Of a stretch of DNA of 51,192 nucleotides, positions 16,797 through 51,192 are shown in pieces. The stretch is from the NCBI GenBank assembly GCA_024275095.1, contig JAJRZV010000024.1:1-51192 (forward strand). The letters are read 5' to 3'. The DNA comes from a bacterium. Lineage in GTDB: Bacteria > JAJRZV01. Every line of letters begins with the position of its first letter. Position 1 is the stretch's first letter. Made by a program: the position numbers and the translations under genes. The notes below the pieces were generated by a model, which ran no database searches, was not told the origin of the DNA, and saw nothing but the letters and a program-made list of their open reading frames with translations.

Positions 16797-16798
16797 AT

Positions 16799-17554
16799 TC
16801 AACCTCCCCTGATACTCGTACCAATTTTTTCACCGAGAAGGATTTTTTTCATGTTGCCTCGTTCTCTGATGTTGAATACAAATACGGGAATTTTTAAATC
16901 CCTCAGCATTGATATAGCAGTAGGATCCATCACCTTCAGGTTCCGTGTAAGCACTTCTTGAAAAGAAATTTCTTCAAATTTCGTGGCCTCAGGATAAACC
17001 TCGGGATCTTTATCATATACTCCGTCCACTTTTGTCGCTTTAAGTATTGCATCGGCATGTATTTCAGCCGCTCGAAGAGAAGCAGCGGTATCAGTGGTAA
17101 AAAAAGGATTGCCTGTACCGCATGCAAAAATTACAACCCGTCCCTTTTCAAGATGCCGAATAGCCCTGCGCCGGATATACGGCTCAGCCACCGCTTTCAT
17201 CTCGATGGCGGTGAGAACACGCGTGGGTATTTTCATTTTTTCGAGTGCATCCTGAAGTGCAAGAGCATTAATCACTGTGGCCAGCATTCCCATATAATCT
17301 CCAGTGGCTCTGTCAATTCCTTCGGACTCTACAGACCTCCCCCTGAAAATGTTACCACCTCCGATAACCACCGCCATCTCCACACCAAGAGCGTGAACCT
17401 CCGCTATTTCCGCAGCAATTTCCTTGAGAAGCTGAAAGGAGATGCCTGACCTGCCTTCTTCTGTTAAAGACTCGCCGCTGAGCTTGATAATTACACGCCT
17501 GTATAAGGAAGTTTTCCCCGACAACCCTGCATGTACATCTTTGTTATGATTCAT
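16799..17554 (-). CDS. pyrH: UMP kinase
   Basis: [33 protein letters not shown]; start placed at ATG 17554. Confidence 0.98.
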
Positions 17555-23532: not shown

Positions 23533-23697
23533 ATCTCCCTCCGGCACTCAAATTAAATGGTCATCTTCTTCTTTATACCATAAACAAAATGCCAGTCTCT
23601 TCATTTGCCGCCAAAATCTTCTCTTGATGAGTCCTACTTTCCATGAAAAAATTCATACAGTGTGAGTATACTTTTCAAAAGAGCCCGGAGGATTTCG

Positions 23698-24675: not shown

Positions 24676-24767
24676 AGAATAAAACAAAGTATTGCAATCT
24701 CCAAATTTCCTTTCCAAGCATGTAGCACACCTGAGGGTTGTAGTATATAATTTGCAATTCGTAATAA

Positions 24768-26015: not shown

Positions 26016-26016
26016 A

Positions 26017-28449: not shown

Positions 28450-28516
28450 CTCCTGCACTTTCTGCATAACCCGAAAACAGTCGGGCTCAACACGTTCGAA
28501 GTTGTACGGATTCAGG

Positions 28517-28744
28517 CTACGAATCCCGCGCAAGTACCCTGCGGGCGACACCAGCGTACTCTTCTGGCACTAAGAGACGAATGTTTGAAAAACCACCCGG
28601 CGCCGAGGGAATCAGACTGCAAATACTCTCATCGAACAGGAAAGCGTGAATGCCCTCTTCTTTCAATTTCCCTGCTGCCATGTGAGCTTCCAGTAAATTC
28701 TTGAATGTGGCAATTGTTACAAGTTTGTCTCTCATGGTATTCAT
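28517..28744 (-). CDS. DUF2007-like small putative signal-transducing protein
   Basis: LVTIATF.N..EAHMA.GKL.EEGI.AFL.DE...IRLLVPEE....AR.VL pattern. Confidence 0.8.
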   Translation of the reverse strand: MNTMRDKLVTIATFKNLLEAHMAAGKLKEEGIHAFLFDESICSLIPSAPGGFSNIRLLVPEEYAGVARRVLARDS

Positions 28745-28935
28745 GTTATCCTTGAAATATCTGTTTCACAATACAAGAGCTGTTGTGTCCGAGCCTCTCA
28801 GCTTTTCCCGTTTAAGCAGGCCTGGAAAAGGGAAAGGATTTAAGGTTAAAACTTGCAAGTGTAGAGACATTTCATGAAAAGGACAACACGCATAGTATTT
28901 GGAACAGTCCTATTCATACTGGTAAAATAACCGCG

Positions 28936-30429: not shown

Positions 30430-30442
30430 AGGTCACGAAATA

Positions 30443-33247: not shown

Positions 33248-33279
33248 ATCCAGAAACAAAAATAAAGCGAGGTAACGTA

Positions 33280-35607: not shown

Positions 35608-35666
35608 AAACAGGTATCTATTTTATCACGGAAACACGTAGAACCTGCCTTCCATGTGAAGCAAAA

Positions 35667-35724
35667 ACAGGGAAGGGCAGGCTCTCGTTTACTCTCTCGG
35701 TCAGGGCCTGCCCTTATCCCCTGT
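35667..35724. terminator. Long hairpin between convergent genes (probable terminator)
   Basis: ACAGGG-AAGGGCAGGCTCT ... AGGGCCTGCCCTT-ATC-CCCTGT inverted repeat; an A-run just before it would give a U-tract on the minus strand. Confidence 0.6.
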
Positions 35725-35729
35725 AAGGC

Positions 35730-38700: not shown

Positions 38701-39038
38701 ACGTTATCTGCAATGCTTATCTGTTTCGAAATACTTGATGTGGCACCATCATCGTCTGTTACCGTGAGGGTGACCGTATAAATTCCTGCACTCGAATACG
38801 CATGTACCGCGGAAAACACGTCGCTGGCGCTTGAACCGTCACCGAAATCAAAACTGCAAGCTGCAACAATACCGTCAAGGTCCGTTGAGCCGGAGCAATC
38901 AAACACCAAGGCTTCATTTATGCGACCGCTTGAAGGACCATCCAGAACCGCGATTGGAGGGCGATTTTTCGGACCTCCACATGAACATACGGCCGCAACC
39001 ACAAAAAATACAATCCATTTACTCCTTTCACTCAACAT
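35730..39038 (-). CDS. Surface lipoprotein: 4 PKD domains, IPT/TIG, nidogen-like region, Ig-like domain, YVTN-type beta-propeller
   Basis: Lipobox VCSC; repeated YDFGDG...H.Y...G.Y.VTLTVTDDDG; VTPDSG..GG..ITI.G.GF; APFFDDL; repeated P.GIAITPDG...YV. Confidence 0.9.
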   Translation of the reverse strand: MLSERSKWIVFFVVAAVCSCGGPKNRPPIAVLDGPSSGRINEALVFDCSGSTDLDGIVAACSFDFGDGSSASDVFSAVHAYSSAGIYTVTLTVTDDDGATSSISKQISIADNVPPVAVLSSPSSGAIGEPVSFDASASYDPDGRVVKYSYDFGDGTSPVTGVVAAASHAYTQAGNYVITLTVTDDDGATSSISKQISIADNVPPVAALSSPSSGVTSEPVAFDASASYDPDGRVVKYSYDFGDGTPPVEGTISGVSHTYTTEGDYIVTLTVTDDDGATNTVSRLISIASLASVSDPPVACFTGPTTASTNEAVFFDASCSTSGSGTIISYVFDFGDSVTATGEVVTHTYTTRGTYTVTLTVTARLSDGSTLENTTSHQIVVSDSTVAITLVTPDSGSILGGEWITIKGYGFTTTPDTTIFLGTAQVTDFTVVDSTTIVALTPASETPGTVDLKVSNSNGVAIYRNAYTYLLSGNLADLTFCPEDASSGGTSLGFAVNDDDAGKLLTLPMDVKFFGVVFPEGQTINVTSNGWLSFTELLRADFENNPIPDPSNPDYMVAPFFDDLNAGITGQVYYKVTGTAPNRVFTIEWINFTDNASLSETFDFQVNFYESSGDIKFQYMNSPFMGDYGSAQEASIGVQKDSATGVEASFNTAVKGLVPGGRVYVFRYLNGEYSLYTDTTLTVYAVDPPLEGDLLTDGSYIITFSKPVNTGTAVAGSTIKMEDATVPSSVTFTISALGDKSILQLTPNSRLIWGHTYNVTVTSGLQDVVGNPFSQDPMEVACGVISNPEPFTGTFIGEPSVVDTSASIPGGGNPKGIAVYGDTLFVAKDNNLFFSYDADSLSPLDVVLVPGASVTLWDVAVHPSGLTAYVTSDGDSTVRVIDISDPLNLAQTASIPVTGASPAGVAVTPDGLTVCVAGNADDNLYVIDAQTLTYTTVALSAGCGPYYVAAATDSSTAYVTCNNNNSVDVVDLTTGSVTANVALPGCGPRGIAITPDGSSLYVGCTNTDTVEVIDTATNTNTETIAGFSFWAWLENVAITPDGMYALVTDGNNDEVGVIDIATNTVRWLISGGGGPFDVTVRDDTYRTVYVTNYNDNTISMIR
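38311..38775. repeat. Near-identical intragenic duplication of PKD-coding DNA, period 267 nt
   Basis: About 38311-38508 matches about 38578-38775, including an exact shared stretch TTATCTGCAATGCTTATCTGTTTCGAAATACTTGATGTGGCACCATCATCGTCTGTTACCGTGAGGGTGA. Confidence 0.9.
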
Positions 39039-39062
39039 GTGTTCACCTCCTCCCTCGGTTTA

Positions 39063-39674
39063 TTAAAAATAAAAATGGAATCCTGCCAGACCGAAAATGC
39101 CCGGATTAAGGGCCAGTGAGTAATTATCACCTATCTGCTGGTACTCAACCCCCATCTCCAGGTCAAGAGCCAGGCTCTGCACAAGCGGAATAAAAAATTC
39201 CGTCCCTGCTCCGCTGTGAACAAAGAAACCCCTGCCTTCACGGTACTTATCACTGCTCCACCGGAAAATACCCCCTGATCCCAGAAATACATAAAAATTG
39301 ATACGGTTTCTTCGCACAACATTAAAATTCAGTCTGCCACCAATGTAAAGTTCCACGTCACGCTGCTCCACGGTATAAGTCGAATTGTTAAAAGAAACGG
39401 CTTCGGAAAACTTTCTCAAGGAAACACCGGTGAAAAACTGCATCCCAAAAGTTGGATTTACCCAGTATTTTACAGAGAGGCGTGGCGAGGGATTCAAAGA
39501 AGTATCCAGGCCCACAACAGCACCAAGCCCAACCTGATTCCTCAAATTAATGAGCACCACCCTCCTCTTCTTCCCCCTCTCAGCTGCCTTCCCATTAGCG
39601 GGCAAACCAATACATACCAATCCCACCACGGCGGAAACAATACACACCATTGTTTTCCTTTTATACCAATACAT
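39063..39674 (-). CDS. Small outer-membrane beta-barrel protein
   Basis: Signal peptide, alternating amphipathic strands (LSVKYW, GAGTEFF, LDLEMG), C-terminal AGFHFYF ending in Phe (BAM signal). Confidence 0.8.
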   Translation of the reverse strand: MYWYKRKTMVCIVSAVVGLVCIGLPANGKAAERGKKRRVVLINLRNQVGLGAVVGLDTSLNPSPRLSVKYWVNPTFGMQFFTGVSLRKFSEAVSFNNSTYTVEQRDVELYIGGRLNFNVVRRNRINFYVFLGSGGIFRWSSDKYREGRGFFVHSGAGTEFFIPLVQSLALDLEMGVEYQQIGDNYSLALNPGIFGLAGFHFYF

Positions 39675-39743
39675 TCTTCCCTCCCTCGGGCTTAAATAAA
39701 AAAATATTTTTTCACTTCGGCCGAAAATATATGGTTAAAGGAA

Positions 39744-39772
39744 ATTATATACCAGGCCACAACCCGAGTCAA
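39744..39772 (-). promoter_or_regulatory. Near-consensus sigma70 promoter for the beta-barrel/PKD pair
   Basis: TTGACT (39772-39767), 17 nt, TATAAT (39749-39744). Confidence 0.75.
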
Positions 39773-39802
39773 GTTTTTCATGGAAGAAAAAACAATTCCA
39801 TA

Positions 39803-41098
39803 TCACCGATTAAACATGTTGTTAACCGAATGGTATATTTCAATCAATCTTTCATCCGGAACATGACACCATGAACGAGGTGTATCTGTAAATACAAGAC
39901 GGTGCCATTCGACTGCTCTGTTTCGAACTTCATCAGCCACAAGGGCAAACAATTCACTGCCGGGACGGGGTTGACACAAACTCCATGAACAGGCATCAAG
40001 CTCAAGTTCCTGAGCAAGCCGAACAGTTTGCCAGATATCATCTTCGGTTTCGCCTGGAATACCTATCATGAAAAAGCCAGCCACTTTTACGTAGTCTTTC
40101 AAAATCTTAACAGCCCTTGCTATCTGTTCAACTGTGATACCTTTCTTCAAAACCTTCAGGCTTTTATCCGTACCAGTCTCAATCCCGAGGTCCACTTGTA
40201 CAAGTCCCCGCTGGACAAGCATTTCGATTTCGTCTTTCCTTACCAAGTCAACCCTCGTGTTCATCTGCCATTTCAAGCCAGGAGCAAGATTATTCAGTTC
40301 GCTTGAAAACTCTTCTATCCATTTTCTATTGAGATTGAGAATGCTGTCCTTAAACCACACACCTTCAAGATTATATCTTTCGACCAGCGAGGCAATTTCC
40401 TCTGCAGCTCTGTGGGGTTCCATTGCTCGCCAGCGTTTGCCCATGGTCGAATGCACGGCACAGAACGAACAATGGTACGGGCAACCCCGCGTTACCATCA
40501 CGGGAAGGGCTCTCAGTTTTCGAAGCTGTCCGGTGTAAGAAATATAGTTTTCCGCCGGAAGGAGCGAATACTCCGGGAAGGGTATTTCACGATTATTCAA
40601 CAACTTCCTTATGAAAATCACTCCCCGTGGTTCAGTTCCCTGCTTCAGTTCGGAAACAAGCCTGAGAAATCCCTTTTCACCCTCACCCGTAACAACCGCG
40701 TCTGCTCCGGTTTCTTCATACACCTCATGTGGAAACACAGTTGGATGAACACCTCCCATGACCAGAAAAATGCGCGGGTATCTTTTCTTAATTTCCCTGG
40801 CAATTGAAAGACCAGAGGGATAGTTAGGAGTGAGACACGATATGCCCACTATCCTGGGAGCTGAGTCATCCACCCTTTCAAGCACATCTTTCCTGGTCAA
40901 CATTTCGCCCGTACCGTCGACAATTTCCACGTCAAGATGGTTATCCTTCAGCACTCGGGCTATTGAGGCGATCCCCAGAGGCGGCTCAAAAGGTTTGATG
41001 TACATGTTACCTGCGCGGATCCAGTGCGCGTAGCGAACTTCTCTCTCTTTCAGGTCTGCAGGTTCGAGTAGTGGGGGATTAATAAGCATTATTTTCAT
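39803..41098 (-). CDS. Cobalamin-binding radical SAM protein
   Basis: LINPP, PPLGIASIA, GGVHPT, GEGE, TRGCPYHCSFC, FMIGIPGET. Confidence 0.92.
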   Translation of the reverse strand: MKIMLINPPLLEPADLKEREVRYAHWIRAGNMYIKPFEPPLGIASIARVLKDNHLDVEIVDGTGEMLTRKDVLERVDDSAPRIVGISCLTPNYPSGLSIAREIKKRYPRIFLVMGGVHPTVFPHEVYEETGADAVVTGEGEKGFLRLVSELKQGTEPRGVIFIRKLLNNREIPFPEYSLLPAENYISYTGQLRKLRALPVMVTRGCPYHCSFCAVHSTMGKRWRAMEPHRAAEEIASLVERYNLEGVWFKDSILNLNRKWIEEFSSELNNLAPGLKWQMNTRVDLVRKDEIEMLVQRGLVQVDLGIETGTDKSLKVLKKGITVEQIARAVKILKDYVKVAGFFMIGIPGETEDDIWQTVRLAQELELDACSWSLCQPRPGSELFALVADEVRNRAVEWHRLVFTDTPRSWCHVPDERLIEIYHSVNNMFNR

Positions 41099-41772
41099 GA
41101 AGGTTTCCTGGCAACAAATACAGTAAACATATTTTTTAAACCGATGTTGCGTGTATATCGGGTATGCTCCAGTTCATGATGGTGCATGTAAAGAATTTCA
41201 AGATCTTTCAAAAGGTTCTCCAGTTCCTCGTCGGTGAAAAAGTGATAGATGGTACCTCTTATATCGCTGATGGTTGTTACCTGGTATGTATTGGATTGCA
41301 CCGGTTCTTCACGAGACTTCAACAATAAAGCAAGGGCATTATCAACATTGCGGACACTCGCAACAAACACCCCACCGGGCCGAAGTACGCGGTAAATCTC
41401 AAAAAATGTTCCTTGAATCTTCGAAATGTTCCCCAGATGAAGTACACGCCAGGCAAGAACAATATCAAATAAAGCGTCAGGAAAAGGAAGGTGCTCCATG
41501 TCTCCCCTCACAAGAGGCGCAACCACATGTGCACGGCGTGACACAAGTAAAGCCCGATGTGAAATATCCAATCCCAGAACGCTGATGCTGAATCGTTTCA
41601 GTATTTCGATATGCCTGCCTGTGCCACACCCCACGTCAAGAGCATTTTTCTGTCCCGTCGGCACGTAACGCAAAAGCAAATCTTCAACAAGAGGGTCAGG
41701 AACCTGAATATCATACCCCCCTTCATTAAATACACGGTCCCACGCATTGCCGTGTGTTTTATCGCATGTCAA
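41095..41772 (-). CDS. Class I SAM-dependent methyltransferase
   Basis: LDVGCGTGRH, GLDIS, LPFPDALFD, RVLRPGG; TTG start. Confidence 0.9.
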   Translation of the reverse strand: MTCDKTHGNAWDRVFNEGGYDIQVPDPLVEDLLLRYVPTGQKNALDVGCGTGRHIEILKRFSISVLGLDISHRALLVSRRAHVVAPLVRGDMEHLPFPDALFDIVLAWRVLHLGNISKIQGTFFEIYRVLRPGGVFVASVRNVDNALALLLKSREEPVQSNTYQVTTISDIRGTIYHFFTDEELENLLKDLEILYMHHHELEHTRYTRNIGLKNMFTVFVARKPS

Positions 41773-41777
41773 AATCT

Positions 41778-43010
41778 TTACCCCATTGCGGAAATGACAA
41801 TTTCAGTAATATCCCTCATGATCAGCGAGGAATTTTTAGCAGCAATAGCATCTTTCAGGCTCTGGTAGCAAAACGGACAGGCAGTTACAAATTCTGAAGC
41901 TCCTGTTTTTTCCGCATCCTCAACCAGTCTGCGAGACATGCTCACCTGAATTTCAGTGAATCCCGCCTTGAGCCCTCCACCCGCTCCACAACACCGGGAG
42001 TAAATGCCCGAACGTTCCATCTCGAGAAGTTTAAGGCCGGGGACGCTTTTTAGTATCTCACGGGGCTCGTTGAAAAGCCCGTTGTGTCTCCCGAGGTGAC
42101 ACGGATCATGGTAGGTAACCGCAAGATCAACTTCACGAGAGAGACTCAGTTTTCCCTTTACTATCAGTTGATAAATAAACTCCGTCATATGATACACGCG
42201 GAATGGAAATTGGGAATATTTGGGATAGTCCTGCCTGAGGGTTTTAAAACAGCCCGAACAGGAGGTCACGATGATTTCTGCTTCCAGCGAAAGGAATTTT
42301 TCAACGTTCTTTCTCACCTGTTGCAGGAACACATCCTTCACACCCATACGCAGGGGTGTACTGCCGCAACAGTATTCCTCAGGCCCCAGGATTCCATAGT
42401 CAATACCTACACGGTTCATTATTTCTGCAAAATTGATGGCAACCTCGCGGATGTTCTGGTCATAAGAAGCCGTACACCCAACAAAGTAAAGAATTTCAGC
42501 TTTATTTTTACCGCGGGAGAGGTCCTTTACAGGCGCGGACAGGCGCCTCTCCCTGTAGGCTCTGTCTGCCCACCTGCGTCGTGCAGACCGCGGCTGCATC
42601 CACGGATTGTCATAGTTTTTTATACTTTGAACAAGTGGATGCTGTGCCTCAAGAGGTCCATATCCGGCATTAACAAAAATTTCTCTTATCTCCTCCCATA
42701 GCTCAATAGTGTCAATTCGGGAAGGACACACAAACGAGCACTGACCACAAACCGAACACCTGTAGAGCGCATCACGAAGGAAATAAATGTCCTTCTCCTG
42801 GATACGCCTGCCGAAAATGGAAAGGAACGGGTTTGTACCTGCCCGGATGGCTTTCTTTATAAGGTAGATTTTGTAAAAAGGGGGCACCTCCCGTGCACTG
42901 GTTTCAGCATATACGGGACACATCTCCACACACGTACCACATCGTGCACATGCAGACAGGTCAATCCGTCTCTTGAGGGGCAGATTGTGGAACGCGAGAC
43001 CACCGGCCAT
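41778..43010 (-). CDS. HdrD/GlpC-like Fe-S protein (2x4Fe-4S + two CCG domains)
   Basis: CARCGTCVEMCP, CSVCGQCSFVCP, YCCG, CSGC, YHDPCHLGR, RCCGAGGG, CPFC. Confidence 0.93.
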   Translation of the reverse strand: MAGGLAFHNLPLKRRIDLSACARCGTCVEMCPVYAETSAREVPPFYKIYLIKKAIRAGTNPFLSIFGRRIQEKDIYFLRDALYRCSVCGQCSFVCPSRIDTIELWEEIREIFVNAGYGPLEAQHPLVQSIKNYDNPWMQPRSARRRWADRAYRERRLSAPVKDLSRGKNKAEILYFVGCTASYDQNIREVAINFAEIMNRVGIDYGILGPEEYCCGSTPLRMGVKDVFLQQVRKNVEKFLSLEAEIIVTSCSGCFKTLRQDYPKYSQFPFRVYHMTEFIYQLIVKGKLSLSREVDLAVTYHDPCHLGRHNGLFNEPREILKSVPGLKLLEMERSGIYSRCCGAGGGLKAGFTEIQVSMSRRLVEDAEKTGASEFVTACPFCYQSLKDAIAAKNSSLIMRDITEIVISAMG

Positions 43011-43704
43011 AAATATCCTCCCTTGACCCTTTCTCCAGAAGAGTCAACAATAGATTTAGAGGAACAGTGAACATGTGAACAAGTTTCGTGAAGGGAATCA
43101 GCACCACCACAGTAACAATCAGCGCAATGTGAAGAAAGAAAACATGGCTGTAATGTACGGCAGTCCAGTTGATAAAAACCCCGGGCACAACATGCGCAAT
43201 GATGCCACCTTTCGTATACGCGTATTTCACACCGGCAAGAAGTATTCCTGTAACGGCTATTGCAAAAATTAGAAATGTGGATGTGAGATCTTCATAAAGT
43301 GCAGGAGATACGTGTCGACCAAAGGTAAAAAAACGACGGGCTAACAGAAGAAGAGAAGACACAACTAAACCTGCAGCCATTATATCGTGGATGAGAATAG
43401 CTGAATCTCCCCCTGTAACGACACCAGCAAAAGAGGGAACAAAGTAATACACTACAAAAAAAACAAAGCACACCGTCATAATAAAATGTGCTGCCCACCT
43501 GAAAAGGCTGTAACGAGCGATATTCCATTGAAGCACGACTTCTCCAACAACAACCTTCACAGTGCTCTTTACAGACGGGCGGTTCACGTGCATACCCGGG
43601 TCTTTCACAGTGACCAGCAAAGTAATGGCGTACACAGCGTACAGGGCCAGTAAGCCTGTACATACCCAGAATATCATTGTTTTTATGTCAGATACCTGCA
43701 GCAT
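42961..43704 (-). CDS. NarI/HdrE-like b-type cytochrome membrane anchor
   Basis: Several TM helices with candidate heme-ligand His (WAAH, LIHD, FLHIAL, FTKLVHMF); start placed at ATG 43704; directly upstream of the HdrD-like gene. Confidence 0.78.
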   Translation of the reverse strand: MLQVSDIKTMIFWVCTGLLALYAVYAITLLVTVKDPGMHVNRPSVKSTVKVVVGEVVLQWNIARYSLFRWAAHFIMTVCFVFFVVYYFVPSFAGVVTGGDSAILIHDIMAAGLVVSSLLLLARRFFTFGRHVSPALYEDLTSTFLIFAIAVTGILLAGVKYAYTKGGIIAHVVPGVFINWTAVHYSHVFFLHIALIVTVVVLIPFTKLVHMFTVPLNLLLTLLEKGSREDIYGRWSRVPQSAPQETD

Positions 43705-44884
43705 TTTCAGAAGACAGGTCTCTTTTTTCGGTTCGCATTGCCCGAAAATGCCAGTTGAACACGTGTGAAGCGCAGGAGTTGAGGCTGGACAACAGTGTTC
43801 CTGCTTCAAGCTCTCCCGACTTCACATGAGAAAGAGACTCTTCCAGTAAGGTCCTTACCTCTTCTACTTCCTCGGGAAGTGCAATAGCATTTCTCTTACG
43901 TCGCACTTTATCCCATATGGCGTTAACAAAGGTGAGGAAATGATAAGCCATCAGGTACTTTGAACCCTTCCATCCTTCGAGTCTGCGCGTTTTGCTTTCC
44001 AGAGCTATTCTCAAATTACTTGCAAGTGCTCTGATCTTGTGTATATCCAAAGCATCCACATGAGAGACTTCTTTTTCTGCTTCTGTACGCTTTCCTTCGC
44101 AAACGAGAAGTTTTCCCAGGATTAGATTGGCTTCTTCATATTCAGGATGCTCAATATGAGGACCAAACGCGTAAATTTTTAAGTCCTTGTGTGCAGCTCT
44201 CACTGCTGCAGCTCGACCTGTATAAATTTCATCCGCAAACTCCCTGTCCACAAGGAATTCCGTTTTGTCTGTAAAACCGCAATAGCGTGCAATCACCTCG
44301 ACTTCCTCGGTCTCTTCCATTACAGGTCCGCCGTAAATGGGTGCTGTAATTATGCCTTTGGATACAAACGGGAAATTCTTCACCACGTGTATCTCAATCT
44401 CTCCCCTCACCGGATGAAATACATACCTGCATCCGTATGGCTGGGCGAACTTCTCCTTCATGCGAACAGGTTCGGGAATGACCTCGCGCAGATTGGCTAT
44501 AGGAGCACGGATAAAATTGAAAAGGTTCAAAGGTTCCTTTGACGAACGAAGAACGAGGTATCCTCCAGCGCATGTACCAATATAAAGTCCTCCTGACCTT
44601 ATAAAACTGCGAAGGGCGGTTGCACCTTCATGTCCCAGGCTTTCTGCTATGGCAAAGGTGTCACCTCCGGATACCACACATGCTCCGGCACCGGAAAGCA
44701 CATCAAACGTCAAAGAAGCCGAAAAAACAACCCTTTTCCACCCGAGAGCCTCAAGTGTCTCACCCACCCAAAGCCACGAGTGAGACGTGCCTTCTCCGGT
44801 ATATACCACAACCCAGGACTCTTCTTCCGGAAAGGTGTGAATAAATCGGCGCAGTGCTGCTCTGGACTTTATTTCAGGGAGCAT
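43688..44884 (-). CDS. BPL-N domain protein (class I glutamine amidotransferase-like fold)
   Basis: VVYTGEG, VVSGG, FIRSGGLYIGTCAGGY, YGGP, GPHIEH; start placed at ATG 44884. Confidence 0.8.
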   Translation of the reverse strand: MLPEIKSRAALRRFIHTFPEEESWVVVYTGEGTSHSWLWVGETLEALGWKRVVFSASLTFDVLSGAGACVVSGGDTFAIAESLGHEGATALRSFIRSGGLYIGTCAGGYLVLRSSKEPLNLFNFIRAPIANLREVIPEPVRMKEKFAQPYGCRYVFHPVRGEIEIHVVKNFPFVSKGIITAPIYGGPVMEETEEVEVIARYCGFTDKTEFLVDREFADEIYTGRAAAVRAAHKDLKIYAFGPHIEHPEYEEANLILGKLLVCEGKRTEAEKEVSHVDALDIHKIRALASNLRIALESKTRRLEGWKGSKYLMAYHFLTFVNAIWDKVRRKRNAIALPEEVEEVRTLLEESLSHVKSGELEAGTLLSSLNSCASHVFNWHFRAMRTEKRDLSSENAAGI

Positions 44885-46106
44885 CCAGAAACACCTTGGC
44901 TGTACTGTGTACCTGCTCTTCAAATGCCCCATAATCATACTTAATGCTTCCGAACACAGGTGAAAGATTTACGGAGAACACACCTGTAAAAATCGGGCAG
45001 ACCCCCGCAGAAAGAGAAAAAACGTAGCGCTTTACAGCATCCTCCAGACAATCCCCGGGTGGCAGAGTAAGACTTGCTCTGCATTTTTTCACGAAGTTTT
45101 TAAACCATCCAGGAACATCCTGCCATATCTCCTCCACCACGGTGGAAAGTTCCTTTCCGTGATAAAGTGCCTCAAGAGGATGTGTGCCTGTCCGGACGGC
45201 ATTCCACATGGTTTCAATAACATCCGACCCGCCTGTGACCAGTGCAAGAGTCTGAAAAGGATCGCTCAACAAAAAACCCGGTTCATCAATCTCGGATTCC
45301 TTCAGGCGTGATGGTTCATCTTTCACCATGAGAAAACTCTGACACGGATATGGACAGTTAAAGCATGCAGAATACCTGTGCACACGTTCTTTTATTTTTT
45401 CCAGCGGGCCTGTGTCTGCACCTGAAAGCTCCAGGACTCTCCCCATGCCTTTACATTCTTCACTCACCGCTGACCTGCGCAGCTCCACGCATGCACTGAA
45501 AAAATCTTCATCCGCTTCAAAAGACTCCATTCCCCTCAGGGCTACCGCCTGAACATTCAGGTTGTCCAGCATATCACCGGCACCGCAAATGTCACCGCTG
45601 TACCAGTAATCAACCATCAGGGGTTTCAACCCTCCTTCCTTGCCGTAAGAGATAACCTGGATGTTCTCATCCGCATGTTCGCCTCTTACACTGTCAACAA
45701 GAGTCCACACACTCTCGGTATTCAATGCACTGGCAGGAAGGACTTCACATATACCATCGTGTATCCAGAGGTAAACCCTCTCGCTGCTTTTACCTTTGAG
45801 AACCACTGCGTCAAATCCTGAATATTTAAGTTCCGCGCCCGTGTGCCACAACAAATGAGTAACAACCGGTCCTGTTGCCTCATTCAGCCATACCAGCGTT
45901 GAAGCACACGAGGCAGGTACGAATGTCCCTGTGAAAAGACCGGCAGCGAATGCTGCGGTGCCACCGGTGTCTTCCAGAAGGTGAAGAGCAAGCAGGGGAC
46001 CGCCCGGCGCTTTCTCCAGTACTTCACTGCTGAGTTCACGTTCATCTATCTCTCCGTTTTCCAGATTTACAACCACATATCGTTCGTTGAAAAAACGCCC
46101 CTTCAT
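44874..46106 (-). CDS. Short, divergent aldehyde:ferredoxin oxidoreductase-like protein
   Basis: VVNLENGEI, GLFTGT, GAELKYSGFDAVVLKGKS..VYLWI.DG, ACFNCPYPC, GVCP; about 410 aa from ATG 46106. Confidence 0.8.
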   Translation of the reverse strand: MKGRFFNERYVVVNLENGEIDERELSSEVLEKAPGGPLLALHLLEDTGGTAAFAAGLFTGTFVPASCASTLVWLNEATGPVVTHLLWHTGAELKYSGFDAVVLKGKSSERVYLWIHDGICEVLPASALNTESVWTLVDSVRGEHADENIQVISYGKEGGLKPLMVDYWYSGDICGAGDMLDNLNVQAVALRGMESFEADEDFFSACVELRRSAVSEECKGMGRVLELSGADTGPLEKIKERVHRYSACFNCPYPCQSFLMVKDEPSRLKESEIDEPGFLLSDPFQTLALVTGGSDVIETMWNAVRTGTHPLEALYHGKELSTVVEEIWQDVPGWFKNFVKKCRASLTLPPGDCLEDAVKRYVFSLSAGVCPIFTGVFSVNLSPVFGSIKYDYGAFEEQVHSTAKVFLDAP

Positions 46107-46453
46107 GAAGCACCTCCTTCCTCTACCAGGCATCCCGAAGGACAAACAGCAACGCAAAAAAGAAAATCCTCACCTTCACACAGGTCGCACGCCTCCCTCA
46201 TAACAATCGGCTTTGATGAAGCACCGGCACCCTCCGCCTTTTCTCCGGGCAAAAGCACCTCTGCGCCTTCAGGTCTGCCGAGAAACACTTCTTTTTCTCG
46301 CTTGATCATCACTCCAAAATAGTCCTTCTTCTCATTGCGGTGGAGCATTATGCTTGAAGACACAGGGTTCATCTCGCGATCGCGGTGAAAAGAACAGGCA
46401 ATTTCACAGATACGGCATCCTGTACATTTGTGTGTAATCACCTCCAGCTTCAC
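46103..46453 (-). CDS. 4Fe-4S dicluster ferredoxin (AOR-associated type)
   Basis: CTGCRICEIACS and CDLC...CVAVCP; GTG start at 46453 after GGAGG, overlapping the upstream stop. Confidence 0.88.
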   Translation of the reverse strand: MKLEVITHKCTGCRICEIACSFHRDREMNPVSSSIMLHRNEKKDYFGVMIKREKEVFLGRPEGAEVLLPGEKAEGAGASSKPIVMREACDLCEGEDFLFCVAVCPSGCLVEEGGAS

Positions 46454-47679
46454 GACACACCTCCCACCGAGTCCCACAGGAGCTTCACCAGGTCAACTAC
46501 AGGGAGCTCGAGGCCTTCTCTCTTTACACCGTCACTGATATTCTGCTCACAAAACGGGCACGCAGTCACAATCATTTCAGCGCCTGTGGACGCTGCTTCT
46601 TTTGCTCTCAATCCTGCCGTGGCCACAGCCACCTCGGTAAAGGCCGTGCGTACACCCCCACCGGCCCCACAGCACAGTGAATACTCACGGTTCCGTGGCA
46701 TCTCCACCAACTCCACTCCAGGAATGTTTTGCAAAATCTGCCGTGGTGCATCAAAAACGCCGAAATAGCGCCCGAGATGGCACGGGTCATGATAGGTCAC
46801 TTTGGACGGAATTTCTTTTTTATGTTCCAGACCTTTATCCTGTGCAACCTCGTCCATGAACTCTACGATGTGCCTCACCTCCGCCCGGAGGTGTTCCTGG
46901 TAGAAATGTTTGAACGTTGAATAACAGCCGGCACAGGCAGTAACCACATATCGAGCACCTGTATTGTTCAGCTGTTCCGCCACTTCGTCACGTCTTTTAA
47001 CGAAGGACTTCATGTCACCAACCCTCATCACCGTGGAACCACAACATCTCTCCTTTTCTCCAAGAATTCCAAAATTTACTCCTGCACCGTGAAGAAGGCG
47101 TGCCGTAGAAAACACAACGTCTCTGAAAGCAGGATCATAAGACCCTGTGCACCCTACAAAATAAAGCACTTCCACCTTTTCCTTGCTTGCATCTTTTATT
47201 TCCACATCTTTCAATCGTTTTGCCCAGCGCCCCCTCTGGGACCTGGGGCTCATCCAGGGATTATCGTAGTTCTCAATGCTTTTAATAAGCGGCCGATGCT
47301 CTGGCAGAGGAGCCAGACCTTTTTCCACCAGATAAACCCTGAGCGCCATAAAAGCATTGGTGGGCTCCAGTCCCTTCATCTCGCTGCATATAACCTGACA
47401 ATTGCCGCATGCCGTACAGGTATAAAGAATCTCGAGGAATTTCTCGTCAATTACCAGTTCAGGAGGGTCACACGTGATCGCCCTGATAAGTTCCATTCGG
47501 CCGGTGCTGAAGTAAGCATCAAAACGAAAATACGTTGCAGCAGGACAATTATCTGCGAAACGGTAGTTTGTAAGAATTTCCGGACGTGTCATACCACACA
47601 GTTTGCACTTTACGCATTTCCAGGCAGTATTGCGATATTCAAATAAATGTCCAAACTTCCCAATCTGTGCATACTGCAT
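46450..47679 (-). CDS. HdrD/GlpC-like Fe-S protein (CCG domains), paralogue of 41778-43010
   Basis: CVKCKLC..NCP, CTACGNCQVIC, RCCG, CAGC, YHDPCHLGR, LCCGAGGG, CPFC; AGGAGG RBS. Confidence 0.93.
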   Translation of the reverse strand: MQYAQIGKFGHLFEYRNTAWKCVKCKLCGMTRPEILTNYRFADNCPAATYFRFDAYFSTGRMELIRAITCDPPELVIDEKFLEILYTCTACGNCQVICSEMKGLEPTNAFMALRVYLVEKGLAPLPEHRPLIKSIENYDNPWMSPRSQRGRWAKRLKDVEIKDASKEKVEVLYFVGCTGSYDPAFRDVVFSTARLLHGAGVNFGILGEKERCCGSTVMRVGDMKSFVKRRDEVAEQLNNTGARYVVTACAGCYSTFKHFYQEHLRAEVRHIVEFMDEVAQDKGLEHKKEIPSKVTYHDPCHLGRYFGVFDAPRQILQNIPGVELVEMPRNREYSLCCGAGGGVRTAFTEVAVATAGLRAKEAASTGAEMIVTACPFCEQNISDGVKREGLELPVVDLVKLLWDSVGGVS

Positions 47680-47754
47680 CACCACCTCCTGTCTAAAATT
47701 TATCTTTCAACAGGCATCCAGGAGTAGAAATGTCAAATGTTGAGACCAGACCCC

Positions 47755-49329
47755 TCATTGCTCGTCCAGAGGATTAACACCGGGGTGTGAGATATACAGC
47801 TCATCCACCACGGCTTTGAACCTTTTTGCCAGTTCCCAGTAAACCTGTGCTCTCGGCATCTCGATTTCTCCAAAGCCGTACATGCGGCGATACATCGTGG
47901 CCTTAAACTTTTCCACAAACATTTCAGTGGTTTTTTTCAACATGACCGCTGCCCTCTTAATATCCTCAGGATTGCCCTGGTCCCACCAGTAATCAAACTC
48001 CAGCGGTGCCAGGCGTGCAAACGGATACGGACCCTGTACAGCCGTGCCTGTGAGCGCCATCTTCTCGGAAAAGTCAGGGGCTGAATCCTTCCAGTACCGG
48101 TGGATAAGCCTGCGGTAATATTCATGCACTAACGGAATCAAATCCATTTTCACATTGCCAGCAGTCCAGTTGAAAGACCCTCTCCACTTCATGGCTGCAC
48201 CCACGCGTGGACCCACAAGTTTCCAGTAGCGCGGATCAAACAAAGGTTCATCAGTGAACAGAAGCGCCTGCTGGTCCACGGCGTACATCCCTGTGGATTC
48301 TGCTATGTTCATGAGAATCTCTTCCTTTATCGCAAGTTCCTCTTCATCGTGGCCTGAGATAATCACAATGACCGGGTCGGAAGGAAGGTAATCTGCAAGG
48401 TCCAGGGGATTATCCACAGGTGCCGCCACAGCCATCTGTCCATGGTGTGATTTATATATGAATTCTGCAATCTCTTCCCTTGATAATCTCAAATCGAACT
48501 CCAGTGCACTTTCAAGAGCCCTTTCGCGGTCATCTGCGTCAAAAATGTAAAGCTTTTCCACCGGATATTCCGGCACAATCCGGATGGTCATCTCCGTGCA
48601 CACACCCATCCCCCCATCTGCCGCCACGAATATGCCCATGATATCCACCAAAGGATGCCAGTTGAGAGGTAACCTCTCTGCTCCTTCTGCATGCACACCG
48701 AGTCTGAGGACCTGGCCATCAGGCAGCACCCAGGTCATTCCCGCGATCAGCTCGCTGGAGAGACCGTATCGGATGGCGATACCAGGCCCCCCGCGTGCCA
48801 CATAATTGGCGAGAGTGGAAATGCTCCCCATGGTTAAAGGCAGGCACGCACGGAGTTTCACGCCGTCATGTGCCAGATGCTCGTTAACAGCGAGGTACAC
48901 CTCAGCATTGCGCGCCCCGGGACCAATGGTGCACGTCATACGTTCTGCATCCACCTCAATTTTGTTCATGCGTTTGAGGTCAAGAAGAATGCCGCCCCAT
49001 CTGGGAAGGGTCAATCCTCCGTGATTGAAACCGGTCGAATAAGGAATAAATGGAATATTGCGTCTGTGGGCGATTTTCACTATCTCCACCACCTCTTCGG
49101 TAGAGGCCGGCATGACGACAATGTTGGGAGCTTTCCCCGGCGTTGGGGTGAAATCACGACTGTAAGTAATGGTTACCGCACGGTGGTCAGTAGCCCATCT
49201 CTCCCCAACCACGTCCCTGATTTCTTTGAGGGCCTCGCGCAAATTCTCTTTGGAAAGATCCCACCTCACCGGGGGCTGTTCCCGGAGTTTTTTCTCTATC
49301 TCTTTCAAGGCTTCACCTCCCTTTTTCAT
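47755..49329 (-). CDS. FAD-binding oxidoreductase (VAO/PCMH/GlcD superfamily)
   Basis: PNIVVMPASTEEV..IVK.A, PYSTGFNHGG, GILLDLKRMNKI, GMTWVLPDG, GGMGVCTEMT. Confidence 0.88.
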   Translation of the reverse strand: MKKGGEALKEIEKKLREQPPVRWDLSKENLREALKEIRDVVGERWATDHRAVTITYSRDFTPTPGKAPNIVVMPASTEEVVEIVKIAHRRNIPFIPYSTGFNHGGLTLPRWGGILLDLKRMNKIEVDAERMTCTIGPGARNAEVYLAVNEHLAHDGVKLRACLPLTMGSISTLANYVARGGPGIAIRYGLSSELIAGMTWVLPDGQVLRLGVHAEGAERLPLNWHPLVDIMGIFVAADGGMGVCTEMTIRIVPEYPVEKLYIFDADDRERALESALEFDLRLSREEIAEFIYKSHHGQMAVAAPVDNPLDLADYLPSDPVIVIISGHDEEELAIKEEILMNIAESTGMYAVDQQALLFTDEPLFDPRYWKLVGPRVGAAMKWRGSFNWTAGNVKMDLIPLVHEYYRRLIHRYWKDSAPDFSEKMALTGTAVQGPYPFARLAPLEFDYWWDQGNPEDIKRAAVMLKKTTEMFVEKFKATMYRRMYGFGEIEMPRAQVYWELAKRFKAVVDELYISHPGVNPLDEQ

Positions 49330-50594
49330 ACGCTATAGCAGGGATTCAGGATCCCCGCCGGATCGGTAATCCTTTTTACCTGATTTAAAAACTTTCTTTC
49401 TGTTGACGAATAAAATCGTGATGCATCCAGGGGCGGGACGCCTGGAAAAGCCCACTCCAGCTTTGTACATATATTGCGTATACGCGAGCTCCACAGGCCT
49501 TCACACCACACAACAAGCACAAAAGCACCACCTCTCGAAAAAGAAGAAACCACATACCGGGGCGTTTTACCCATCTCATCTTCCACGGCTCCGGCAGCTG
49601 ATACCACCTTATTCCGGAAATCCGGATACGAACCGTAAATCACGGCCGTGCTTCCTGATGAAAAAATACTGCGTCGTGTCCACATTTCATCCTCAATGGT
49701 GACCACACGCTCCGCTCCCCACTTGAGCATCATCTTCTCAACGCGCCTGATGTTATAATTCACCAATTTCTCCCGCCCGGCATATCCAAGTACAACAAAT
49801 GTCAACCCTTTATCGAGACCGGCTCCCGTCAGCTCTTCAAGTGATTTCGCATCTCCCGTAAAGCATTCCACTGTCAACTCATGCCTCGGAACATTGCGTA
49901 AAACTTCACCGGCAACTTTTAAATCCCGCACCTTCCATACCTCGCCCTTTCTCACCTCCCACCGCGGGTAAAGATACACGGAGGACCTCACCATCACCCC
50001 CATGATGTCCGGTGCTCCGAAATACCAGCGGGAAAGGTTTGGGCCAGGGTCATCACGACAATCACCCGCTTCTTCAGAGAGAGCATGCTGGCCCGTGCGA
50101 TGTATCAATCCTTCTGGAAGGGCCACATACATGTTGGAAATATTAAGGTCACCGTACCTGGCGCACTCCCGCACAGGATGGCGCATGGCATAACACTCGC
50201 TGATACTTGCTGTCGGTGTCACAAGAGGCATGAATACATCAACGCCTTCTGCACGAGCTGCTTCCACCACCTCCTTGAAATGAACTCCACGACCAACATG
50301 GGCGATGAGATTTCGTGCATCCAACCGATCTATTGCTGCCAGTCTCGAGAACTCAAATATCACGCTGCCGGAGTAATCCAGCACAGGATCAAAATACCGT
50401 TCATATGTTGTAAAAACCTTTACACTGCTGTAATTGCATATTTTCAGTACTGCAGCAGCTTCTTCATATGAACCCGGTCTTACAGCACACACCGGTAAAG
50501 AGGCGGGTTGTTCAGGGAAGTATTCATCCACATCTTCTACCACTCCATCTTTACCCAGTTCTCTCTCCAGCAATTCTTTTATTTTTTCACCCAC
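49326..50594 (-). CDS. Second, more divergent FAD-binding oxidoreductase subunit (GlcE-like)
   Basis: VRPGSYEEA..VLK.C, FSRLAAI, VALPEG, GPNL..WYFGA..IMGV, C-terminal KRITDPAGILNP. Confidence 0.8.
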   Translation of the reverse strand: MGEKIKELLERELGKDGVVEDVDEYFPEQPASLPVCAVRPGSYEEAAAVLKICNYSSVKVFTTYERYFDPVLDYSGSVIFEFSRLAAIDRLDARNLIAHVGRGVHFKEVVEAARAEGVDVFMPLVTPTASISECYAMRHPVRECARYGDLNISNMYVALPEGLIHRTGQHALSEEAGDCRDDPGPNLSRWYFGAPDIMGVMVRSSVYLYPRWEVRKGEVWKVRDLKVAGEVLRNVPRHELTVECFTGDAKSLEELTGAGLDKGLTFVVLGYAGREKLVNYNIRRVEKMMLKWGAERVVTIEDEMWTRRSIFSSGSTAVIYGSYPDFRNKVVSAAGAVEDEMGKTPRYVVSSFSRGGAFVLVVWCEGLWSSRIRNICTKLEWAFPGVPPLDASRFYSSTERKFLNQVKRITDPAGILNPCYSV

Positions 50595-50615
50595 AGCCGA
50601 CCTCCTTCCTGGTAT

Positions 50616-51192
50616 TCAAATAAACACCTCTATCAGTACCGCACACATGTAGATAACCAGACCCACAGGAACAGCCAAACGAATAAATTTTTCACGCTCA
50701 CGTGCTGATGAATTCACAGCCGCCAGGATTTCGGCATAGAAAAAGAAAAATGCAGCCGCCCCAAGCCACAATATAATGGCAGGCAGCAGAGGCAATAACT
50801 TAAGAGAAAGATAAACGCCGAGAAAATACCACTCGGGTTTCACCACTGCAGGAGGACGAGAGGGGTCGGGTGGAACTCCCGAGTCCACCGGGAAGGCAAA
50901 GGTAAACACGTTGAGAACAACAAGAATAAAAAGCACTATTACAAGGACATCTATCGCATGGTCGGGCCAGAAAGGGTGGCTTTCTTCATCACTTTTCAGC
51001 GGCGTGGAGCCTGTTGCTCGTATGCTTGCGATGTGGAGTGCACCCAGTACGCCGAGAGCTCCAGGTATAATCCACGCGTGAAGCGTAAAAAACCGCTGGT
51101 TGAGTGGCAGACCCCCAGCATCTGTGAAAGCAGATTTGATAATTTTACCCACCAGGGGTACCTGTGAGGCAATATTGAGGCCCACAACAGAA
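50616..51192 (-). CDS. Cytochrome b of a bc-type complex, C-terminal part (5' end outside the window)
   Basis: Frame open to the window edge; VPLVG, RFFTLH...P, LHIASIR..G, PFWPDH, KPEWYFL (PEWY Qo motif). Confidence 0.9.
   Translation of the reverse strand, partial: SVVGLNIASQVPLVGKIIKSAFTDAGGLPLNQRFFTLHAWIIPGALGVLGALHIASIRATGSTPLKSDEESHPFWPDHAIDVLVIVLFILVVLNVFTFAFPVDSGVPPDPSRPPAVVKPEWYFLGVYLSLKLLPLLPAIILWLGAAAFFFFYAEILAAVNSSAREREKFIRLAVPVGLVIYMCAVLIEVFI

Follow-up and report, generated by a model that had tools for sequence, protein, structure and literature searches.

What could a bacterium do with an operon that places two flavoproteins, two iron-sulfur proteins of the HdrD type, a relative of the tungsten-dependent AOR enzymes and two kinds of cytochrome b side by side? 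The question is raised by one end of contig JAJRZV010000024.1 (assembly GCA_024275095.1), whose 51,192 nucleotides (nt) were analysed as a whole and are referred to here as the window. Between positions 39803 and 51192 we found eleven genes, all on the minus strand and in one direction, which overlap or are separated by gaps of at most 69 nt; an earlier note made from the sequence had described this overlapping or closely spaced series, and Pfam agrees with it gene by gene. In the order of transcription they encode a bc-type cytochrome b, two flavoproteins (FAD-A and FAD-B), a first Fe-S protein with CCG motifs (CCG-1), a ferredoxin, a shortened AOR-family protein (AORN), a protein with a BPL_N domain (BPLN), a NarI-like membrane cytochrome b, a second CCG protein (CCG-2), a methyltransferase and a B12-binding radical S-adenosylmethionine (SAM) enzyme. 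Our favoured reading, for which we see even chances, is that these genes form one operon and encode an electron-transfer system that is composite, membrane-bound and linked to (mena)quinone, with two dehydrogenases and a new catalytic head.

The proposal of a single operon system holds for the co-directional cluster, but the operon is a composite of three modules: the cytochrome b with FAD-A, FAD-B and CCG-1 (module 1); the ferredoxin, AORN, BPLN, the NarI-like protein and CCG-2 (module 2); and the methyltransferase with the B12 radical SAM enzyme (module 3). By gene content across related loci, only module 2 is a conserved block. A scan of GTDB species genomes with an alignment of 25 AORN members (A1) gave 255 stretches, 190 of them with an encoded relative, and the best 80 of these 190 relatives, with 10-kb flanks, were taken as the synteny set and searched by tblastn with the window proteins and with proteins from four loci. 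By their labels, the 80 loci belong mostly to metagenome-assembled genomes of Desulfobacterota, with one labelled Actinomycetes and a few only bacterium, Proteobacteria or Pseudomonadota. The ferredoxin and AORN genes are adjacent in all 80, BPLN is present in 77, and in 77 the three genes are contiguous, beside membrane cytochrome modules that vary. A NarI-like gene occurs in 60/80 loci, and in 53/80 it is followed by a relative of CCG-2 with 43-49% identity. The recurrence of this five-gene core in the same order argues that the cluster is more than chance. Conservation of gene order, as suggested earlier, therefore applies to the core; the exact eleven-gene order was found in no other locus examined.

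The surroundings of the block are more diverse. A GntR/FCD regulator was detected in 59/80 loci, a multihaem cytochrome c in 58, a b561-type cytochrome in 56, a FAD_binding_4 flavoprotein in 55, a CCG-1-like protein in 50 and a conserved 238-amino-acid (aa) protein in 24-25. In the dominant layout the CCG, flavoprotein and GntR genes are divergent from a series that runs ferredoxin, AORN, BPLN, cytochrome c, b561, a cytochrome c/NarI fusion and CCG-2. Four loci (L019, L026, L069 and L071) have a variant with Rieske, b6 and petD genes. In L019, which is of Syntrophaceae type, positions 12537-16860 encode a NarI-like protein with an N-terminal CxxCH motif, a Rieske protein, a cytochrome b6, a petD protein that has PEWY, and a CCG-2 with an N-terminal cytochrome c domain and a transmembrane helix as fusion partners; a locus of this kind is apparently a dehydrogenase/bc supercomplex operon. 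Another 4-5 loci carry a set of NrfD, a QrcB/PhsA-like molybdopterin protein and cytochrome c. In L063, a flavoprotein, CCG, ferredoxin, AORN, NarI, CCG and BPLN all point in one direction.

The head of module 2 starts from an AOR-type pair. The ferredoxin (46103..46477; 124 aa, two [4Fe-4S] motifs, Fer4_7 and Fer4_9) finds its best PDB matches in 9mqx_E (3.3e-5), AorA (8c0z_C, 3.6e-5), BamC (4z3w_E, 4.2e-4) and the small subunit of WOR5, and is, by these matches, a homologue of the small Fe-S subunits of AOR-family enzymes (WorS-like), with two cluster motifs against the three or four of WorS-type poly-ferredoxins. AORN (44874..46157) has a longest open reading frame (ORF) of 427 aa; its likely start at 46106 gives 410 aa, as in the database copy P0001. 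It belongs to an abundant family of ~428-aa proteins that have the AFOR_N domain only. AFOR_N (PF02730 / IPR013983) was matched at 5e-21 over residues 26-209, and the family profile A1 matched 1aor at 6e-44, with significant alignment only to 1aor residues 5-235; a search for AFOR_C (PF01314 / IPR001203) gave no match at E<=0.01. The structural model (predicted local distance difference test, pLDDT, 80.5) had as its only Foldseek matches at E<=0.001 nine AOR-family chains, with E between 4e-19 and 4e-13, and covers about two thirds of AOR, at TM-scores of 0.57-0.70 by query length and 0.38-0.51 by target length. We took the pterin-binding motifs of AOR to be DxxGL(C/D) (1aor residues 488-494), and the cluster cysteines to be those of CxxCxxxC and of a distal GLC, with their roles as in the PfAOR structure. 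Two such motifs were sought in the window protein, and no pterin-binding Asp was found at the equivalent positions.

The cysteines of AORN divide the family. The window protein carries CxxCxxxC at residues 265-272 (C265, C268, C272) and C387, the cysteine of a distal G-x-C-P motif. This full four-Cys pattern is common to the window protein, P0002 and P0004, and P0003 has part of it; the other 21 aligned members show C-x2-T-x3-T/S with a His at the distal position, three of the four cysteines being gone. The single-Cys pattern was found in 51/80 loci, and the remaining 29/80 did not match the regular expression used. A G-I/L-D motif is present in 20/25 aligned members and absent from the window protein, P0002, P0003, P0004 and P0029. 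By these motifs the family splits into two subtypes, a small window-like one and the main Desulfobacterota one. The main subtype mostly retains an Arg together with the G-I/L-D motif, both of which are missing from the window-like subtype. The window AORN would thus be a protein that retains AOR domain 1, with four cysteines for one putative [4Fe-4S] cluster, and that appears to have no second, pterin-binding half. The label of an AOR-like module remains correct for the AFOR_N domain and the AOR fold, but with neither AFOR_C nor the pterin-binding Asp this is not a standard tungsten AOR.

The next gene encodes BPLN (43688..44938; 416-aa ORF). It matches BPL_N (5.6e-9), the name given to it earlier, and its fold is that of the class I glutamine amidotransferases (GATases). 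The model (pLDDT 84.4; predicted template modelling score, pTM, 0.88) matches, over the first ~250 residues, the GATase subunits 2d7j, 7d97, 2nv2, 4gud and 1qdl, with E from 2.5e-7 to 1e-5, Foldseek probability 1.00, target-normalised TM-scores of 0.66-0.77 and 12-19% sequence identity. C123 occupies the nucleophile elbow, between a strand and a helix, and is followed by His-x-Glu; C123, H261, E263 and H264 are invariant in 26/26 aligned sequences. We thus predict that BPLN is a class I GATase fold with a conserved Cys-His-Glu triad; any glutaminase function is putative. The Pfam GATase models gave no match to BPLN, which was hit only by BPL_N and, under its cut-off, by Peptidase_S51, and a sequence search of the PDB gave no significant match. 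In the ESM Atlas, AORN and BPLN fell only into hypothetical or BPL_N / AFOR_N clusters. A profile of BPLN found 134 representatives at E<=1e-30 among 1.84 billion, many of them fragments, and a search for fused or longer forms returned one weak match only and no synthase-type partner domain.

After the GATase-like part, BPLN has a helical domain of ~130 extra residues, which is the predicted docking surface for AORN. The modelled AORN-BPLN complex scored 0.70, against 0.00 for the best of three controls; a score of 0.70 is reached by 116/157 solved complexes and by 2/215 mismatched pairs, counts that are rough since custom alignments were used. The model runs agree in at least 84% of contacts, with a partner pLDDT of at least 80. 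In the interface, AORN residues 133-138, 161-165 and 208-210 face BPLN helices 300-316, 342, 346 and 372-373. Among the interface residues, H133, D134, D163, R208 and G209 of AORN and R310, I311 and W342 of BPLN are invariant in their families, and S307 and N308 of BPLN are nearly so. We know of no solved AOR-GATase complex, so it seems unlikely that the model merely reproduces a known structure. The predicted complex supports that AORN and BPLN bind each other.

The membrane part of module 2 comprises the NarI/HdrE/DsrM-like cytochrome b (42961..43809; 282-aa ORF, PF02665 3.6e-5) and CCG-2 (41778..43010; 410 aa, CCG 7.9e-36, Fer4_8 3.2e-12), an HdrD-type Fe-S protein whose gene follows directly. 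The cytochrome, with a likely later start at 43704, has five or six hydrophobic segments, several histidines and no CxxCH motif, and its match to DsrM reaches 25.6 bits against a 300-bit cut-off. CCG-2 has two [4Fe-4S] ferredoxin motifs and two complete CCG motifs. It is a clear paralogue of CCG-1, as the earlier note had seen from the motif SIxNYDNPWMxPRSxRxRWA, which is indeed in both proteins; they share 40% identity over 339 residues (E 7e-92).

Module 1 begins at the very end of the window with a partial Rieske/bc-type cytochrome b (50616..51191; PF13631 8.3e-12, PF00032 2.8e-4). The fragment is the C-terminal 191 residues, its 5' end lying beyond 51192, and contains four hydrophobic segments; the b/b6 N-terminal domain is represented by its end, and the C-terminal domain is petD-like, with the Qo motif PEWY at residue 119. 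Among the 80 loci, it matches only L019 and L071, weakly. After a Shine-Dalgarno-like AGGAAGGAGG comes FAD-A (49326..50594; 422 aa), whose FAD_binding_4 match of 27.1 bits lies barely above the 26.4-bit cut-off, and whose FAD-binding domain is possibly degenerate as well as weak. The ATG of FAD-B (47755..49329; 524 aa, VAO/PCMH superfamily, FAD_binding_4 7e-25) overlaps the FAD-A stop codon by 4 nt. The two are distant paralogues, with 25% identity over 216 residues (E 6e-11). A metagenomic protein of 902 aa, P0137, is a fusion of FAD-A and FAD-B with the FAD-A-like part upstream, which argues that both proteins form one enzyme; P0148 and P0149 are partial fusions. CCG-1 (46450..47685; 411 aa), an HdrD/GlcF-type Fe-S protein with CCG matched in two stretches (1.1e-34), has two ferredoxin motifs and two complete CCG motifs, in the cysteine pattern 2 x (C-x34-CC-x35-C-x2-C), and all its NCBIfam matches are under the cut-offs. 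Neither flavoprotein shows a signal peptide, an N-terminal hydrophobic segment or a transmembrane segment, and the haem c motif CxxCH is absent from all 11 proteins of the operon; since there is no hydrophobic N-terminus and no haem c motif, the FAD-A/FAD-B/CCG-1 unit is predicted to be cytoplasmic.

The catalytic dehydrogenase subunit is presumed to be FAD-B. Its family has its own full-length relatives, at 38-77% identity, mostly without a name. When the family profile (A3, 35 sequences) was scored against solved structures, the best scores, 140-152 bits, were for 9ffk, 8s7r, the p-cresol methylhydroxylase (PCMH) 1dii (145.5), 9h40 (140.5) and EUGO (142.6), and lower ones were obtained for D-lactate dehydrogenase (124), glycolate oxidase (118.6), VAO (85) and alkyl-DHAP synthase (64-78). 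These alignments are limited to the FAD-binding half, and the lead of PCMH and EUGO over D-lactate dehydrogenase is 20-30 bits. Ether-lipid synthesis via alkyl-DHAP synthase was considered for FAD-B and dropped, on the 64-78 bits with that enzyme as compared with 140-152 with PCMH/EUGO. The flavoproteins found in the related loci align to FAD-B over only ~260 residues with 31-37% identity, and those of L014 and L063 are GlcD-like; given the partial alignment and the GlcD-like type, the flavoprotein of these loci is not a FAD-B orthologue.

Module 3 closes the operon. The class I SAM-dependent methyltransferase (41095..41772; 225 aa, Methyltransf_11 3.6e-21) starts 5 nt after the CCG-2 stop and has the DVU_1556 family as its best NCBIfam match, at 66 bits against a cut-off of 155. 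The gene of the B12-binding (class B) radical SAM enzyme (39803..41098; 431 aa, PF02310 3e-24, PF04055 5.5e-27), the last of the eleven, overlaps the methyltransferase gene by 4 nt and encodes CxxxCxxC at residue 206; its NCBIfam scores are under the cut-offs for BchE (163/481), rSAM_ladder_B12 (148/360) and HpnJ. The pair is a lineage-specific appendage, translationally coupled to the operon. A role in menaquinone methylation was dropped for it, as UbiE/MenG scored far under the cut-off and the pair is not conserved. Methyl-transfer genes of another kind accompany the block elsewhere: in L063 (5992-8397, plus strand) a CCG-1-like protein is fused to a MtaA/CmuA-family (URO-D fold) methyltransferase (TIGR01463, 254 bits, cut-off 235), and 23 other loci have, downstream of their CCG-1-like gene, a separate gene with 62-72% identity to this MtaA/CmuA domain (for example L014:2520-3617, L072:4644-5654 and L053:1340-2359), which brings the domain to at least 24/80 loci, a lower bound since many copies are cut by the locus edge. 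The MtaA/CmuA genes and the methyltransferase/B12 radical SAM pair of the window, which stands at the opposite end of its operon, may share a methyl/corrinoid theme.

Other genes near the block in the 80 loci could give a hint of its substrate. An arginase-family (ureohydrolase) gene is part of the divergent flavoprotein operon in 10/80 loci (for example L014:1332-2423, L053:115-1182 and L063:8378-9649), and other loci (among the examples is L072:1368-4548) have an ABC transporter of the LIV type, or a polytopic membrane protein of 460-495 aa without a Pfam match. The ureohydrolase and transporter genes, with the GntR/FCD regulator, suggest that the Desulfobacterota substrate is a nitrogen-containing organic acid. 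After the block of L063 (14616-17300) we also found a MSMEG_0568-family radical SAM gene (325 bits, cut-off 304), a GNAT gene of the MSMEG_0567/Sll0786 type and a sll0787-like AIR-synthase-related gene, the last just under its cut-off, and a MSMEG_0568-family radical SAM gene is also present 2-4 kb after CCG-2 at the ends of L016, L051, L005, L031 and L032. The 238-aa protein (L019:16958-17674 and 23-24 more loci) follows CCG-2 and has a cysteine-rich C-terminal region; neither Pfam nor NCBIfam offers a match for it, even at E<=5, and there is no homologue in the window.

How could these parts work together? A membrane-bound, quinone-coupled system, as the earlier note had proposed, is the natural reading of the parts. 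In our favoured model FAD-B would be catalytic and FAD-A its degenerate paralogue, comparable to GlcE or to the alpha-prime subunit of PCMH, and CCG-1 would serve as a GlcF/HdrD-type electron outlet that takes electrons from FAD-B. The ferredoxin, AORN and BPLN would constitute the cytoplasmic head, which the NarI-like di-haem cytochrome b and CCG-2 would connect with the quinone pool in the manner of HdrED, DsrMK and EMO. Both cytoplasmic modules could then be dehydrogenases reducing menaquinone. FAD-B would oxidise an alcohol, a hydroxy acid or an alkylphenol-type substrate, close to the alcohol, hydroxy acid or methyl-aromatic compound whose oxidation had been inferred before, and the AORN/BPLN head would perform a second, Cys-dependent step on an intermediate at the aldehyde, acyl or amide level; to judge by the Cys-His-Glu triad, this step would be of an acyl-thioester or amide-hydrolysing kind. 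The quinol would be re-oxidised by the bc-type complex, with two dehydrogenases possibly feeding one quinol oxidase.

For module 2, the oxidative direction seems to us slightly more probable than the reductive one. The modules that are exchanged around the head are Rieske/b6/petD in 4 loci, NrfD, molybdopterin-like protein and cytochrome c in 4-5, and b561 with multihaem cytochrome c in 56-58. By comparison with bc complexes, ACIII/Qrc and Cbc-type cytochromes, these exchangeable modules resemble quinol:cytochrome c oxidoreductases, and if they are rightly read in this way, NarI/CCG-2 and the head would be the quinone-reducing side. EMO works in the quinone-reducing direction, according to 10.64898/2026.08.18.745454. 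We also hypothesise, as a rather unlikely extension, that the pterin-free AOR-derived protein, the ferredoxin and BPLN are a new respiratory head whose chemistry takes place at the Cys-His-Glu site via a thioester or amide intermediate and not at tungsten, and that high-potential electrons of the flavoprotein and low-potential electrons of the head meet at the quinone/bc level, giving a redox loop or confurcation between two steps of one catabolic pathway.

Several observations weigh against the favoured model, and they bear on its parts as well as on its unity. The N-terminal part of the cytochrome b and any Rieske gene are outside the window, the c-type cytochromes of the related loci are not in it, and none of the eleven subunits reaches the NCBIfam cut-off of a substrate-specific family. 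Apart from one possible [4Fe-4S] cluster, no site for a redox cofactor can be recognised in AORN, and most members of its family have lost those cysteines, which leaves the electron path inside AORN, and any oxidation by it, unexplained. Among the 80 loci, tblastn gave no match to FAD-A, the methyltransferase or the B12 radical SAM enzyme, and no true FAD-B orthologue stands beside the AORN block; with no counterparts of FAD-A, the methyltransferase and the radical SAM enzyme, the eleven-gene unit may be a lineage-specific juxtaposition. The locus counts are themselves uncorrected, many of the missing components sitting at contig or locus ends. Taken further, these absences lead to an explanation by mere adjacency, in which a GlcDEF-like dehydrogenase, an independent ferredoxin/AORN/BPLN/NarI/CCG-2 complex and an unrelated methyltransferase/radical SAM pair are co-transcribed by genome compaction. 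FAD-B orthologues and the AORN block do differ in distribution, within the data seen, module 3 is not conserved with the block, and there could be internal signals in front of CCG-1 (gap of 69 nt) and of FAD-A (21 nt). But the CCG-1 stop lies inside the ferredoxin ORF and the methyltransferase gene follows CCG-2 so closely, and in 50-55 of the 80 loci a flavoprotein/CCG pair, though of another subfamily, is near the block, in L063 even in a single direction with it. We consider mere adjacency improbable.

The direction of electron flow raises another objection, since the b561/cytochrome c and Qrc-like modules could equally be periplasm-fed quinone reductases, with the head as a terminal reductase. 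Electrons would enter at NarI, from quinol or from periplasmic cytochrome c, and travel on by way of CCG-2, the ferredoxin and AORN into a reduction in the cytoplasm, for example a glutamine-dependent reductive amination or another amide-linked reduction that uses the BPLN triad, and FAD-A/FAD-B/CCG-1 would supply the quinol, in a redox loop between two cytoplasmic half-reactions. The b561 protein resembles the gamma subunits of formate dehydrogenase (TIGR01583, 47.5 bits, under cut-off) and the molybdopterin-like protein of L001 resembles QrcB (183 bits, under cut-off); both Qrc and FdnI, the gamma subunit of formate dehydrogenase, are periplasm-fed quinone reductases in their known contexts. 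Class I GATases normally hand ammonia to a partner, and the predicted docking places BPLN on AORN, but the predicted interface uses the C-terminal helical domain of BPLN and not its GATase domain, and the search for longer forms, with its one weak match, found no synthase-type partner domain or fusion. According to PMC10861901, HdrED and DsrMK, the closest NarI and CCG systems, run from quinol to a cytoplasmic acceptor; this is opposite to the direction that we favour. The Rieske/cytochrome b modules of four loci, on the other hand, are quinol oxidisers towards the periplasm, and reductive amination from menaquinol would be thermodynamically marginal. On balance we regard a terminal reductase as doubtful, if well worth keeping in view. 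A pathway of the anaerobic 4-alkylphenol or p-cresol methylhydroxylase type, as in Geobacter metallireducens, would instead make FAD-A and FAD-B the alpha-prime and alpha subunits, use the bc-type cytochrome b to drive an uphill transfer to menaquinone and have the AOR-like module oxidise the aromatic aldehyde. The length of FAD-B, ~520 aa, fits the 4-phenol-oxidising subgroup, its profile scores highest with PCMH/EUGO-type structures, above D-lactate dehydrogenase and glycolate oxidase, and, according to PMC4122944, PCMH of G. metallireducens is encoded in a cluster with a bc1 complex, for which a reversed Q-cycle electron transfer to menaquinone has been proposed. The likeness to PCMH covers only the FAD-binding half; the eleven proteins are without CxxCH, the flavoproteins are without signal peptide or transmembrane segment and are followed by a cytoplasmic GlcF-type CCG protein, AORN is without the AOR cofactor domain, and the partners of the block in most other genomes, namely a flavoprotein of the GlcD-like kind, a GntR/FCD regulator and a transporter, point to an organic acid. 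A methylhydroxylase pathway is therefore very unlikely in our judgement, and the two-dehydrogenase, quinone-linked model remains our working model.

With longest ORFs and in transcription order, the spacings between the eleven genes are 21, -4, 69, -28, -55, -65, -122, -50, 5 and -4 nt; later start codons, guided by homologues, give shorter versions of the large overlaps. The gene cluster extends past the window end, beyond which the operon has its upstream end, and its 3' end is at 39803. A promoter-like site of sigma-70 type (11/12) at 39772-39744, between the radical SAM gene and the next gene, marks this 3' end, though such sites are no more frequent in the scan than in shuffles of the region. 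No Rfam family was matched in 35000-51192, and so no cobalamin riboswitch near the B12 enzyme. The gene directly downstream (39674-39063) has a strong promoter-like site of its own and encodes a small protein resembling outer-membrane beta-barrels; after it, 39038-35730 encodes a protein of 1102 aa in which there are four PKD domains, one IPT/TIG domain and a YVTN beta-propeller. Positions 23662-35607, on the plus strand, are glycan-related, encoding a DctP-type binding protein, DUF4855, GH94-like and DUF2961 proteins, a CarboxypepD_reg-domain protein and a weak GH15-like one, at a G+C fraction of ~0.50, compared with ~0.40-0.45 over the first 25 kb of the window. The minus strand of 894-23547 holds PilZ, TonB/ExbB/ExbD twice, several large TPR proteins, recO-like, frr, pyrH, tsf, rpsB, dapF, lysA and argH. 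Because of these housekeeping and envelope genes, the window is ordinary chromosomal DNA of a Gram-negative-type bacterium.

Methanogens, sulfate reducers and syntrophs rely centrally on membrane modules of the HdrD/NarI type to conserve energy, and each partner characterised so far (the heterodisulfide CoM-S-S-CoB, the DsrC trisulfide, ETF) explained part of anaerobic bioenergetics. The partner set described here recurs among anaerobic bacteria, in at least 190 species-level genomes by one scan, and its head is built from an AOR relative stripped of most of the cofactor-binding fold and an amidotransferase-like enzyme that seems to be active. Knowing what the head converts would extend by one the known respiratory reactions of Desulfobacterota and related sediment bacteria; it would also test whether the AOR fold works without tungstopterin and explain why different quinone- or cytochrome-interacting modules are exchanged around one constant head.

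The likeness of the parts to GlcDEF, to HdrDE and to PCMH with bc-type components, pointed out by the earlier note, is borne out by domain and motif architecture, and we found no published description of the cluster in the open-access full text of PMC and bioRxiv, where papers under subscription may be missed, in agreement with the view that the combination is not a described pathway. The Desulfococcus multivorans genome paper mentions ordinary Aor1-3 and a lactate operon, and not this block. GlcDEF shares with module 1 two FAD_binding_4 proteins and an Fe-S protein with two ferredoxin and two CCG motifs, cytoplasmic and presumably quinone-reducing. The differences are that FAD-B reaches 75.9 bits of the 567.9-bit GlcD cut-off (TIGR00387) and FAD-A 22, that CCG-1 and CCG-2 reach 46 and 73.6 bits with GlcF (NF008434, cut-off 333), that the FAD-B family is nearer to PCMH/EUGO structures, and that in the window a bc-type cytochrome b gene precedes the flavoproteins. 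The PCMHs are periplasmic flavocytochromes c, and the Geobacter enzyme of Johannes et al. (2008) reportedly has an alpha/alpha-prime composition with one FAD-free isoform. With it, the window has in common a pair of VAO/PCMH-type flavoproteins, one probably degenerate, beside a bc-type cytochrome b, but its flavoproteins have no cytochrome c subunit and no export signal, and a CCG protein instead; the Qo motif is PEWY in the window and APWY in the Geobacter complex, according to PMC4122944.

Part of the head is related to AOR-family enzymes. The ferredoxin-AORN pair is homologous to WorS-WorL, AorA-AorB and BamC-BamB, and the class IV BamBCDEFGHI complex likewise combines an AOR-family pair with Hdr-like subunits. 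To our knowledge, no WOR has a GATase-like partner. AORN differs from the WOR and AOR proteins in its 410-427 aa, as compared with ~600, and in having no PF01314. The class V WORs carry a Tat signal and are periplasmic; the window system faces the cytoplasm. Class V WORs are linked to the respiratory chain, as stated in PMC13328260. The 2026 WOR classification in the same source required both domains for its 92 clades, which places the AORN family outside them. BPLN has the fold, the nucleophile-elbow Cys and the His-x-Glu of the GATase subunits (GuaA GATase, Pdx2, HisH, TrpG and PurQ), but also a C-terminal helical extension, and no synthase partner of a known kind was found for it in our searches.

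A further parallel is with HdrED, DsrMK and EMO/EtfD, in which a di-haem NarI-like membrane subunit is likewise followed by a cytoplasmic CCG protein with two [4Fe-4S] motifs. CCG-2 carries the motifs by which HdrD is recognised, but GlcF has the same motifs and no disulfide chemistry. This is also true of EMO, as 10.64898/2026.08.18.745454 indicates; HdrD and EMO both have two CCG motifs, like CCG-2 (PMC10861901 and the EMO preprint). According to PMC10861901, two CCG motifs are the pattern of HdrD and HdrB, and DsrK, TmcB and HmcF have a single one, which in DsrK is accompanied by a GECGH cysteine; CCG-2 has two full CCG motifs. The NCBIfam scores are all far under their cut-offs: CCG-2 reaches 98.2/400 bits for DsrK and 107/735 for TmcB, and the NarI-like protein 25.6/300 for DsrM. 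The cytoplasmic partner of NarI/CCG-2 in the window is the ferredoxin/AORN/BPLN trio, and not DsrC, ETF or a heterodisulfide system. By its genes, the system would best be described as an HdrD/NarI-linked membrane oxidoreductase with a new AOR-derived, GATase-like head.

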